A stretch of DNA of 62,473 bases, the filler included, from Deltaproteobacteria bacterium (GTDB lineage Bacteria > JAUYMQ01): the NCBI GenBank assembly GCA_030698575.1. It is 11 parts of 11 records of this genome, joined end to end, with 100 filler letters (N's around TTAATTAATTAA, not from the genome) between each part and the next. Parts side by side here need not be neighbours in the genome. Positions count along the whole stretch, not along the records: positions 59,822 to 62,473 come from JAUYMQ010000326.1; 10 more parts are not named here. The stretch is one strand, 5' to 3'. The notes beneath the pieces were generated by a model that saw only the letters and a list, made by a program, of their open reading frames with translations, did no database searches and had not been told where the DNA came from. Below, one piece after another: positions 59,822-62,055 of this stretch. Position numbers and translations under genes: made by a program. Position 1 is the stretch's first letter; the number at the start of each line of letters is the position of its first letter.

Positions 59822-60103
59822 CTCAAGCCCGTAGCCGCGGTATTGCCGTTCCTGCATCCCTTGAGGGCTGGCGTTCCGGAAGTTGTCACCAGAGACCAGA
59901 AAATAGTTCTGCCTGGGGGCGATGTGGATCGTGTAAATGCCACCGATCTCTCCCGAGTCGACGAGGACCACCTTGCACTCGAACTGCCACCCACTGAGCG
60001 GGAATGCGCCGGACTCCAATCGACCGGTCACCTTATCCTTCACGCGCGAGTACTGGTCGGTGTTGTAGGAACGTTCGGAGATAGAAACGATTTCCAGAAT
60101 CAA
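59822..60103 (-). CDS. Hypothetical protein fragment next to the IS110 right end
   Basis: Open frame to the contig end; no motif recognised. Confidence 0.3.
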
Positions 60104-60119
60104 CTGCGCGTTGACTTTC

Positions 60120-61487
60120 CTAAGAAACTCCTTCCGTCGCTGTTGCAGCGGTTACCAGGGTGAACCCCAGACTCTTTGCGCGGCGATGCAGGTTGTGGAT
60201 GACGCGCTGCCGGTAGCGCTCTTCATAGGAGGACACGCCGGGGTCGACGTAGGTCATGCCGAATCGCAGGGCGTTGTAGAACAAAATCGCGAGCTTGCGA
60301 GCCGTGGCGGTCACCGCCTTGGCTTTGCCCGTGCGGGCGGCGAGGCGTCGGTAGAAGGCGCCGAGCGCCGTTTGCGTCCTCCCGATATTGACCGCCGCGA
60401 TGCGCAACACGGCGGTCGCGCGATTCGACGACCGGCGGGTCTTGGAGCTGAGGAGGCGACCGCCCGAGATCTTGTTGCCGGGGGCCAGGCTCAGCCACGA
60501 GGTGAAGTGTTTGGCGGTGGGCCATTTGGTCATGTCGTCGCCGCACTCAGCTACGAGCCGCAAGACCGTGTACGGACCGAAGCCATGGATCTGGCTCAGG
60601 TCGGCGCCCAACAGCGTATACAGGGCGGGCCGCACCTCGAACGCCGGCTCGTTCCGGCCCTTCGCGTGACGCACGGACGGGAGCGGGGCGTCAGGGGTCA
60701 CACGCTGTTCGTTCAGCCCGCCCAAGACCGCTTCGATCTCGACGTCGCACTCGGCCACCTTCGCCTGATGAAAGTCGTACAGCTCCAGGGCCTGCCGCAA
60801 CGCGAAGACGTGCTCAGGACGGTAGTTGCCGATGAGCGCCTCGCGGATGGTGTCCTCCGAGGCGTGGCACCGGCGGTCGCGGAACGCGGCCAACTGCTCG
60901 GGCGCGTGATTGCCGGAGACGATCGCCCGGATGATGCGCATCCCGGTGAGCCCCGTAATGTCCGTAACCACGTGGTGCAGCTGCACATTCATCTGCATGA
61001 GCGCCTTCTGCATGTGTTGAATGTGCGCGGCGGCATAGTCGACCAGCCGCTCGCGATGGCGCAGGTACGCGCGCAGACGCACGACGCTGTCGCGGGGCCG
61101 GAAGCTCCCGCGCAGCAGCCCGTGCTGGTGGAGCTGCTGCAACCACTGCGCATCGTTCACATCCGACTTTCGGCCGGGGACGTGCTTGACATCGCGTGCG
61201 TTGACTAGCAGTACTTCGAACCCCCGCGCTTCGAGAATCTCGAAGACCGGAATCCAGTAGACGCCGGTCGACTCCATCGCGACCGTCGTGATACCCACCT
61301 CCGTGAGCCAATCCGCCAACTGGTGCAGATCGCTACTGAAGGTGCGGAAGGTACGGACTGGCCGGTCATCTCGGTCGCTCGGCACCGCGACCACGTGAAA
61401 GGTCGCGCCGATGTCGATCCCGGCGGCGTGTGGATTGATGGTGGAAAGGCGTCCTGCTGATGTCCCACGCGTCCTTTTCCCTGGCAT
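60120..61487 (-). CDS. IS110 transposase (DEDD recombinase)
   Basis: AGIDIG, AMESTGVYW, GRKSDVNDA, KISGG, TATARKLA; GGAGG RBS. Confidence 0.95.
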   Translation of the reverse strand: MPGKRTRGTSAGRLSTINPHAAGIDIGATFHVVAVPSDRDDRPVRTFRTFSSDLHQLADWLTEVGITTVAMESTGVYWIPVFEILEARGFEVLLVNARDVKHVPGRKSDVNDAQWLQQLHQHGLLRGSFRPRDSVVRLRAYLRHRERLVDYAAAHIQHMQKALMQMNVQLHHVVTDITGLTGMRIIRAIVSGNHAPEQLAAFRDRRCHASEDTIREALIGNYRPEHVFALRQALELYDFHQAKVAECDVEIEAVLGGLNEQRVTPDAPLPSVRHAKGRNEPAFEVRPALYTLLGADLSQIHGFGPYTVLRLVAECGDDMTKWPTAKHFTSWLSLAPGNKISGGRLLSSKTRRSSNRATAVLRIAAVNIGRTQTALGAFYRRLAARTGKAKAVTATARKLAILFYNALRFGMTYVDPGVSSYEERYRQRVIHNLHRRAKSLGFTLVTAATATEGVS

Positions 61488-61504
61488 CTGAACCTCCTGT
61501 CGAG

Positions 61505-61700
61505 GAAGCCCGGGAGCAGGGGTGGCGCATCAGATCACTTTCCTAAACGGGATCGCCCGCAGGCGTCACCAATATCAAGTGCGCAAGCCACCCCCGGACC
61601 ATGTTTTTTTACGGGTTCGCGGCGTCACCAAAAAGCAAACGGCCATTCCTCCCGGGGTGCCGCGACGATAGCCCCACTGGGAGTTTCTGGTCCAGCAGGT
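61505..61700 (-). ncRNA. Putative IS110 bridge RNA (target- and donor-binding loops)
   Basis: Two parallel TTGGTGACGCC...CCCGT modules closed by a CCCGGGAG/CTCCCGGG stem; loop sequences match the element end and flanks. Confidence 0.7.
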
Positions 61701-61728
61701 AGCACGGCACCCGCCGAGCCCGATGGTT

Positions 61729-62055
61729 TTTTAGGATGTCGCGCTCCATCCGCAGTTCGCGATTCTCTTTGCGCAGCGTGGCCAACTCGGCGCGCTCCTC
61801 GGTCGTCAGGCCCGTCTTGCCCTTCGTCCGATCAGCCCGCGCGTGCCTGACCCAATTGGCCAGCGACGAGGGCGTCAGATCCAGCTCGCGGGCGACGGCG
61901 CCGATCGTCTTGCCCTCGTCCAATACCAGCCGGACCGCGCCGACCATGAACTCGTCAGAAAACTGCCGGCGTGGCCGCCGACTCGCGCTGCGCTTGGCCA
62001 TTCGGGACATCGTATCCACCTTTCGGAAGATGTCCACGAAACCGGATCAAGCCCA
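61729..62055 (-). mobile_element. IS3-family remnant: left IR and orfA, cut at the frameshift site
   Basis: TGGGCTTGATCCGGTTTCGTGGACA IR-like start; orfA from 62010: RRQFSDEF..AVRLV..VARELDL..SLANWV..LRKENRELRMERDILK. Confidence 0.85.

Follow-up and report, generated by a model that had tools for sequence, protein, structure and literature searches.

The DNA stretch analyzed here (the window) spans 62,473 nt, consists of 11 parts of the assembly GCA_030698575.1 (Deltaproteobacteria bacterium; JAUYMQ01), and carries on the minus strand of its last contig (59822-62473, JAUYMQ010000326.1) an insertion sequence of the IS110 family, 1,608 bp in length (60119..61726). With a probability of about 0.85, this is an RNA-guided element whose bridge RNA targets the run of A's at which the transposase genes of IS3-family insertion sequences shift frame, the copy at hand combining a cognate left half-site with a near-cognate right site in a host gene. 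A bridge RNA aimed at the IS3 frameshift site had been proposed in a preliminary description of this stretch, and at the level of the whole clade the proposal is supported by guides spelling T-A7-G-C, by flanks representing orfA and orfB, and by an empty site reading CT-A7-GCC. The correspondence of guides and flanks, the insertion site, the core, and the RNA structure were all documented by sequence comparison.

The comparison relied on a scan of one genome per species, which returned 258 relatives; the best 80 of 258 (63–96% identity) were taken together with their flanks (loci designated L001, L004, etc.). Both ends and the non-coding region could be parsed in 73 of the 80, yielding 74 sequences with the window copy, and seven loci (L005, L053, L064, L071, L075, L076, and L077) were left out as truncated or too divergent. 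Clade members at this level of identity occur in Acidobacteriota, Pseudomonadota, Actinomycetota, Chloroflexota, and other groups, and 242 plasmid records match at 60–80%; plasmid records came to 437 overall. The start of the left end, as placed by a hidden Markov model (HMM) or a position matrix, is imprecise where left ends vary in length; hence, for 21 loci the boundary was set by likening the first 8 nt to those of close relatives or by comparing copies, and for the remaining loci it was set at the end of the A-run. One of the omitted loci is a decayed relative (L005:2300-2501), in which the left end has lost its initial ~110 nt to unrelated sequence and the UUUAGGAA strand described below is missing from loop 2.

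The non-coding left end of the element (239 nt, 61488-61726) lies upstream of the recombinase gene. Its consensus structure suggests that the segment 61512..61726 (minus strand) harbors a bridge RNA gene comprising a 5' hairpin region, a target-binding loop (loop 1), and then a donor-binding loop (loop 2), and the same succession of 5' region, loop 1, and loop 2 was found in all 73 relatives. Loop 1 is built of GGCCG, a 10-nt strand, a GGUG..CCC hairpin, an 8-nt strand, and C(A/G)UGG; in loop 2, GCG(G/C)A.. is followed by a strand, a GGUGACGCC..GGCGAUCCCG hairpin, an 8-nt strand, and a closing stem. The two parallel loop modules (..TTGGTGACGCC..CCCGT..) noticed earlier in the single sequence are real and conserved in the relatives. 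RNAalifold run on 54 distinct sequences predicted 27 pairs, 15 of them with compensatory changes; the consensus contains six helices, four of which show such changes in one or more pairs. In this structure, 95.2% of the cells are paired, as compared with 88.4% after shuffling and at most 54% with the partners slid, and in 500 shuffles not one of the five measures applied was equaled. Invariant G-U pairs identify the recombinase-gene strand as the folding, transcribed one.

The 3' strand of the target loop, UAAAAAAA (61604..61611, minus strand), reads as the sense of the left target (6 nt) followed by an AA core. The identity of TTTTTTA in the loop (61605-61611) and at the IS3-side flank (61727-61733), which had drawn attention to this strand, is indeed present at both places. 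In the 73 relatives, the corresponding 8 nt before C(A/G)UGG coincide with the terminal 8 nt of the left flank, the agreement being 8/8 in 16 cases, 7/8 in 37, 6/8 in 19, and 5/8 in 1, i.e., 6/8 or better in 72 of them. For 27 unique guide–flank pairs, the mean agreement is 6.78 vs. 5.09 in shuffled pairs, a value reached in 0 of 5000 shuffles. The left guides mostly read U-A7 or UU-A6; the others include TTGTCAAA, TTTGACAA, CAGGGAAA, CCAAGAAA, TAAGAAAA, GTGGCAAA, and ACTTCTAC. The guides departing from the A-run follow their own flanks (11 unique pairs, mean 6.91/8 vs. 4.26 shuffled, 0/5000 as high).

The 5' strand of the same loop (61632..61638, minus strand) carries UUGCU (61634-61638), pairing with the first 5 nt of the right target, and UU (61632-61633) opposite the core. 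Taken in the antiparallel sense over the first five bases after the core, the right guides of 55 unique pairs match at a mean of 3.47/5 vs. 2.74 when shuffled (0/5000 as high); guides with GC, AC, and AG accompany flanks with GC, GT, and CT, respectively. In the window copy, UUGCU pairs with AGTCA of the right flank at 4/5, one G:T being counted. It had been pointed out that the reverse complement of 61632-61640, GTTTGCTTT, resembles the flank GTTGACTTT (60110-60118) at 7/9 plus one G:T wobble; the count holds, but two of the bases counted, those farthest out, belong to the invariant GGCCG stem. Jointly, the guides of the window copy specify T-A7-G-C.

The 3' strand of the donor loop, UUUAGGAA (61540..61547, minus strand), repeats the sense of the right end (..CTTAGG) with the AA core at 7/8 positions in the window copy, and the strand at this position agrees with the right end and core at 6 to 8 of 8 positions in 64 relatives. 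Where the right end has changed, the donor strand has shifted jointly with it, as in L015 (CATAGG), L073/L074 (CTCAGG), and L050 (CTCGAG); for 10 unique pairs, the mean is 6.8 vs. 5.81 shuffled, with 31 of 5000 shuffles as high. The 10-mer ACTTTCCTAA, on which the donor-like loop had been recognized in the first place (61537-61546, identical to 60114-60123), has only these 2 matches in the window, 0.01 being expected from 100 shuffles. Its TTAGG-AA part is supported as a guide; covariation is lacking for its final three bases (AGT), which belong to the flank. The 5' strand of this loop, GCGCACUUGAUAUU (61571..61584, minus strand), is a candidate for the guide that reads the beginning of the left end: TCGGG, at positions 4-8 of that end, could pair with its CUUGA by means of two G-U pairs. 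Overall, three guides (for the left target, for the right target, and for the right end with the core) co-vary with the flanks or the end in the retargeted relatives. The refutation check proposed beforehand, for copies at sites unrelated to their loops, was run on the relatives and favored the guide reading.

The genes around the insertions point to the same site. Among the left-flank open reading frames (ORFs), 37 of 54 (the window included) match HTH_Tnp_1, the IS3 orfA type; among the right-flank ORFs, 24 of 52 match rve, 13 of them also HTH_21. The right ORF of L004 (transpos_IS3, 377 bits) covers profile positions 84-369 and the window orfA covers positions 1-77, so the insertion point corresponds to the orfA/orfB junction. 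A tally of peptides over 70 distinct contexts gave 28 with ..ILK / K-x3-[FWY]FA (e.g., KAAAFFAKE) on one or both sides (both in 16); a further 17 have ..QK / KVAEILG, a second IS3-like type, on one or both sides (both in 11), this type likewise combining HTH_Tnp_1 with rve and having its orfB open in the -1 frame. Hence, in at least 45 of the 70 distinct insertions, the site is the A-run that links orfA to orfB in IS3-like elements. Cultured bacteria harbor the clade as well: the copy on the Dinoroseobacter shibae plasmid pDSHI01 sits at ..RDILKK / ATQFFAS, and in a copy on a Rhizobium leguminosarum plasmid guide and flank both read ATACCTAA.

Other kinds of flanks were recorded as well: four right ORFs belong to DDE_3 (IS630 type), six left ORFs to DDE_Tnp_1_4, and one right ORF has a Mu-transposase C-terminal domain. 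In L028, L062, L065, and L068, the A-run lies between the DNA-binding and the DDE_3 parts of IS630-type transposase genes, the DDE_3 part being in the -1 frame; L028 has IS630-type domains on both sides. The A-run of the IS630-type genes may be another frameshift site used as a target. An element present in ten copies on one 7.28-Mb contig (L034-L041, L052) has the guide GUGGCAAA, and its IS3-type flanks read ..EILA / KATAWFARE (L036 left, L038 right). The same element is repeatedly found inside a DDE_Tnp_1_4 gene at ..TKFWA/NQLRVLL (TGGGCAAA/CCAGCTG; L034, L035, L037, L041, and L052), where its right guide pairs two bases out of register.

Empty and occupied sites could be compared within one genome, G001 (12 loci from 42 matches). 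Two intact IS3 copies read ..ATCCT-A7-GCCGCGG.., and at four occupied loci A6 precedes the left end and TTAGG-A3-GCC follows the right end. The seven A's of the empty site become six plus three upon insertion; therefore, two A's are shared, which defines AA as the core. In the window, the left copy of the core (61727..61728, minus strand) consists of the two A's that end the left flank CTAAAAAA (61727-61734), and the right copy (60117..60118, minus strand) is followed by the right flank AGTCAACG.. from 60116 downwards. L050 has AC in place of AA in both loops and at both junctions; all other relatives have AA, save for one AG in the loop of L067. The AA core suggested in the preliminary description is supported by the G001 sites as well as by the AC core. 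Of the six A7-form copies fetched from G001, four are occupied; the six unoccupied loci (L087-L092) represent an IS3 variant with GGCAAAAGC in place of A7, reading ..CTGGCAAAAGC.., the same variant motif as that flanking the ten-copy element.

Several observations weigh against this reading or narrow it. The relatives were gathered via the recombinase and are related to one another, so that the shuffle tests overstate independence. Twenty-five of the 70 contexts were not classed as IS3-like and comprise IS630-type and DDE_Tnp_1_4 genes, repeats, and ordinary DNA. The window copy matches its own left flank at 6/8 only (U-A7 vs. C-T-A6), and the right guide pairs at 2/5 or less in 16 of 62 relatives. 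Three IS3-type insertions (L042, L051, and L095) have two A's after TTAGG instead of three, one fewer than the AA-core model predicts. The candidate guide for the left-end start shows no consistent register, with per-position pairing of only 0.40–0.85 across 53 unique pairs (the 5' donor strand of L016 was excluded from the pairing test of left-end and right-flank guides), which agrees with the weak left-donor match (CUUGAU) conceded earlier. For the handshake-like bases after the donor guide (AGU in the window copy), covariation with the right flank is absent: the observed value was reached by 843 of 5000 shuffles. Taken singly, the RNA of the window folds no more stably than its shuffles (z -0.36; 71 of 200 fold at least as well), and a search of Rfam returned no relevant match at E up to 1, giving only two weak, chance-level matches inside the coding region.

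The flanks of the window copy deserve a closer look. On the left, an IS3-family fragment (61727..62055, minus strand) was identified by HTH_Tnp_1 (PF01527, E 2e-15) and by the NCBIfam model transpos_IS3 (NF033516, profile positions 1-77, 46.7 bits, under the whole-protein cut-off as befits a mere fragment). Its orfA starts at 62037 and ends with ..RMERDILK-K at the junction, a leucine-zipper ending (..ILKK) at an A-rich slippery run as in the IS3 family, and the left tip of the IS3 lies near 62055. Among the sequencing runs (22 listed, all of DNA; contigs of four compared, designated with an X), the contigs of X2 and X7 diverge at 62055, and the depth is high over 61958-62046. Owing to the insertion, the orfA frame stays open for ~41 codons into the IS110 left end (61609-62037), spanning the 5' hairpin region and a part of loop 1. 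On the right, there is a fragment of a host gene of unknown family (59822..60116, minus strand) that is not IS3: Pfam gave no match over 59822-60118, and no IS3 orfB (rve) occurs downstream in the window copy. A metagenome contig, L093, is 100% identical to the right flank over 297 nt and runs on upstream as ..CTGATTCAAGAAAAAGTCAACG.. in an unbroken ORF; the contigs of X2, X4, and X7 likewise extend from 60118 into the same host sequence, leaving the gene uninterrupted and representing the empty host site. A homolog of this gene in L094 is 61% identical and encodes a 237-aa protein with a lipoprotein-like N-terminus. Since the left flank is IS3 orfA and the right one is a host gene, this copy draws its flanks from two distinct sites. 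In the host gene, the site CAAGAAAA-AGTCA (also written CAAGAAAAAGTC) matches the left guide at 6/8 and the right guide at 4/5 including one wobble, so by its sequence it looks like an off-target, near-cognate site.

Two explanations of these mixed flanks come close to each other. According to the first, which we hold at even odds, the junctions are real: a copy in IS3 and an off-target copy in the host gene recombined, either homologously or via the recombinase acting at half-matching sites, and the chromosome was rearranged as a result. The resemblance of the host site to the target speaks for this, as does recombination at half-matching sites reported for IS621 (bioRxiv 10.64898/2026.08.31.748434). 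There is also a precedent in the clade: two copies of the ten-copy element, L036 and L038, located on the same 7.28-Mb contig, have reciprocal mixed flanks, one with an IS3-like orfA on the left and DDE_Tnp_1_4 on the right, the other the reverse. They show that real recombinants exist in the clade, and L001 may be a further case. The two copies lie in the same orientation on the contig, not as a single inversion would place them. Against a real rearrangement in the window stands the fact that neither counterpart junction, left end with the 5' part of the host gene or right end with IS3 orfB, was seen in the contigs of the compared runs.

The second explanation, to which slightly less than even odds are given, is that the chimera arose during assembly, separate copies being present in IS3 and in the host gene and the contig being threaded through a 1.6-kb repeat. 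The window is itself a series of linker-joined contigs, and the one in question ends 297 nt from the junction. In run X1, which holds most of the stretch, the element is otherwise covered in pieces, by seven short unitigs. The unitig over the junction of the left end with IS3 orfA differs from the window by 6 substitutions and 2 one-base indels within loop 2 (61529-61561), so at least two variants of the element are present in the X1 sample. An artefact is opposed by the X1 unitig over the right junction, which agrees with the window at every letter (although it reaches only 23 nt into the flank), and by the reciprocal chimeric flanks of L036 and L038 on a single contig, with L001 as a possible addition.

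A more general alternative concerns the clade as a whole. The association with A-runs of IS3 might reflect a preference of the protein for A-tracts, or the survival of harmless insertions, without any guidance by RNA; at least 5 A's are found at the left junction in 51 of the 70 contexts, and most of the signal comes from one motif repeated among related elements. This is rated as improbable, because relatives with other loops sit at correspondingly different sites (TTGTCAAA, TTTGACAA, CAGGGAAA, CCAAGAAA, GTGGCAAA, ATACCTAA, and ACTTCTAC) and because the right guide moves among GC, GT, and CT targets. Least credible of all, and contradicted by the right flank of this copy, is a simple single insertion into one intact IS3, whose removal would restore the A7G window with orfB downstream, as the preliminary description had it: joining the flanks formally does yield ATC CTA AAA AAA G with the orfA frame staying open, but the right flank gives no IS3, rve, or HTH_21 signal, L093 goes on upstream of the 297 identical nucleotides as host sequence (..ATTCAAGAAAAAGTC.., also given as ..ATTCAAGAAAAAGTCAACG..), not as IS3, and the contigs of X2, X4, and X7 pass from 60118 into that same sequence.

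Under the preferred reading, i.e., RNA-guided targeting of the IS3 frameshift run, the element would be an IS110-group insertion sequence moving by RNA-guided recombination with a two-loop bridge RNA encoded in its left end. The guides of loop 1 would jointly specify 5'-T-A7-G-C-3', that is CTA AAA AAA GCx (Leu-Lys-Lys-Ala), the slippery run of the orfA-to-orfB shift, and the 3' strand of loop 2 (UUUAGG-AA) would recognize the right end with the core, as they are arranged in the excised circle. Upon recombination at the AA core, the element would come to lie behind A6 of the run and ahead of the A that adjoins G, invariably pointing the same way as orfA, so that orfA and orfB would be split apart. 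The circular intermediate and the chemistry are presumed from the work on IS621 and ISEc21, and the same analogy suggests that the bridge RNA is produced and bound by the recombinase; read-through from the IS3 promoter is conceivable. Two internal loops flanked by stems, closed by hairpins, and covarying, along with loop strands that co-vary with target and donor, are the hallmarks of a bridge RNA, and their presence here argues for that designation.

The body of the element was delimited by the ends conserved in the 73 relatives and by the G001 sites; on the minus strand, its first base is 61726 (C) and its last is 60119 (..TTAGG). The recombinase (transposase) gene (60120..61487, minus strand; 455 aa) has its stop codon, TAG, within the terminal TTAGG, so that the right end extends 0 nt beyond the stop and nothing non-coding is present downstream. 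The protein matches DEDD_Tnp_IS110 (PF01548, residues 22-166, E 9e-23) and Transposase_20 (PF02371, residues 297-379, E 1e-11) in Pfam, and it scores 257 bits against a cut-off of 140 with the NCBIfam equivalog NF033542 ("IS110 family RNA-guided transposase"). A phmmer comparison with the IS621 recombinase of PDB 8wt6 (8wt6_A) gave a weak match (E 1.4e-4), in which, with 2 tag residues subtracted, MESTG falls on E60, KSDVNDA on D102/D105, and ISGG on S241. The roles of these residues and of D11 are those described for IS621 in the text of PMC11208158; D11 is outside the aligned stretch, and GIDIG (residues 22-26) of the present recombinase is within the Pfam match. On this sequence evidence, the element is classed as an IS110-family insertion sequence with a DEDD/Ser recombinase. 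The long RNA-bearing left end and the short right end, by which the text of PMC11208160 characterizes the IS110 group, are both present; in the IS1111 group, the RNA region follows the gene and both tips have subterminal inverted repeats of 7-17 bp close by, an arrangement not shared by this element. The G001 sites, where 2 nt are shared, show the site-specific mode of insertion of the IS110 family: a short core is used, and neither a long target duplication nor terminal inverted repeats accompany it.

A 9-nt inverted repeat is present inside the element, its arms being AGAAACUCC (61680..61688, minus strand) in the left end, 38 nt from the tip, and GGAGUUUCU (60123..60131, minus strand), 4 nt from the right end. 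Its conservation extends throughout the clade, with compensatory changes in L016, L026, L032, L042, L066, and L070; in 23 unique pairs, the mean complementarity is 7.91/9 vs. 7.41 shuffled, and 3 of 5000 shuffles were as high. The repeat might bind protein or, in a transcript crossing the circle junction, form a stem. At a contig end in L027 (3860-3927), the right end is joined to the left end via five A's (TTAGG-AAAAA-CAGTCC). This may be a circle junction or a slipped register, a tandem copy, or an overlap in the assembly graph; five A's misfit a simple circle junction with two A's.

In the rest of the window, self-comparison revealed no second copy of the element contig anywhere in the 62,473 bases, and no intact target CTAAAAAAAGC with up to one mismatch was found there. 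The contigs are joined by identical artificial linkers, N44-TTAATTAATTAA-N44 (ten or more contigs, linkers within 6847-59821). Since the linkers are artificial, genes facing each other across them are not genomic neighbors.

As to the meaning of these findings, a tentative view, to which somewhat less than an even chance is given, is that a widespread clade of bridge-RNA elements are specialized hyperparasites of other insertion sequences, homing on the frameshift A-run of IS3-like (in some lineages IS630-like) elements, with guides that track changes of the motif and with a guide order mirroring that of IS621. The guide GUGGCAAA matches IS3 variants with the run turned into GGCAAAAG, and such variants are unoccupied where only the A7 guide is present (G001). 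If this view is true, the two families of mobile elements would be engaged in an arms race. The target would be the one short sequence that IS3-family elements cannot easily alter, their transposase depending on it; it would be present in many copies, do the host no harm, and travel between genomes with the IS3 elements, and this would account for the spread of one clade across phyla. Each insertion would put a copy of IS3 out of action, orfA being cut off from orfB. The retargeting found in nature (A7G, A8G, GGCAAAAG, TTGTCAAA, TTTGACAA, CAGGGAAA, and the AC core) would provide guide–target pairs of a recombinase distant from IS621 and unlike it in core and guide order, and could interest the engineers of bridge recombinases. 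For annotators, there is a caution that IS110 copies can bear flanks from two different sites.

The closest point of reference is IS621 of the IS110 group with its bridge RNA (Durrant et al. 2024, PMC11208160; Hiraizumi et al. 2024, PMC11208158). The present element resembles it in the DEDD/Ser recombinase with E60, D102, D105, and S241 aligned, in the long left end combined with almost no right end and no long terminal repeats, in the order of a target loop and then a donor loop, each made of stem, guide, hairpin, and guide, and in a 2-nt core covered by both loop strands, the left side pairing via the bottom strand and the right side via the top strand. Unlike IS621, it has a distant recombinase (the phmmer E-value being 1.4e-4) of 455 aa vs. 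326 aa in native IS621 (328 in the PDB chain), a core of AA instead of CT, and the IS3 frameshift run as the target instead of a REP element. According to the text of PMC11208158, the left guide LTG (A50-U58) of IS621 lies 5' of the right guide RTG (G77-G80), after which handshake bases follow, whereas in all 74 sequences compared here the 5' strand carries the right (top-strand) guide and the 3' strand the left (bottom-strand) one; this comparison assumes that the left target of IS621 abuts the left end and takes the definitions of left and top from the wording of the papers as distinct from their figures.

Targeting of IS3 transposase genes by an IS110 element has already been published, at a different site, for ISEc21 with its seekRNA (Siddiquee et al. 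2024, PMC11187229): as stated in the text of that paper, it targets the codons surrounding the DDE motif's second D in IS3-family transposase genes. ISEc21 and the present element are alike in being of the IS110 type, in having an upstream non-coding region, and in being insertion sequences homing on another one, a conserved stretch of IS3-family transposase genes being the target in ISEc21. In ISEc21, the top-strand match is 3' of the bottom-strand match, an order like that of IS621, whereas here it is 5', as the text of PMC11187229 reports for the tested members of the IS1111 family. The clade would thus combine an upstream RNA of the IS110 type with an IS1111-like guide order, depending on the definitions of left and top given in the text of these papers. 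Full-text searches of the literature returned no paper on the targeting of a frameshift run by IS110 elements, although the supplementary target logos and orthologue tables of Siddiquee et al. and Durrant et al. might list it; the word "frameshift" has 0 occurrences in the main text of PMC11208160 and of PMC11208158.

A further parallel is offered by IS4321/IS5075 of the IS1111 group, which, as cited in the main text of PMC11208160, target the terminal repeats of Tn21-family transposons. These elements differ from the present one in belonging to the IS1111 group, with the RNA region downstream and long subterminal repeats, and in having a non-coding terminal repeat as the target; they share with it the principle of a site-specific DEDD element that uses a conserved sequence of another mobile element as its target.

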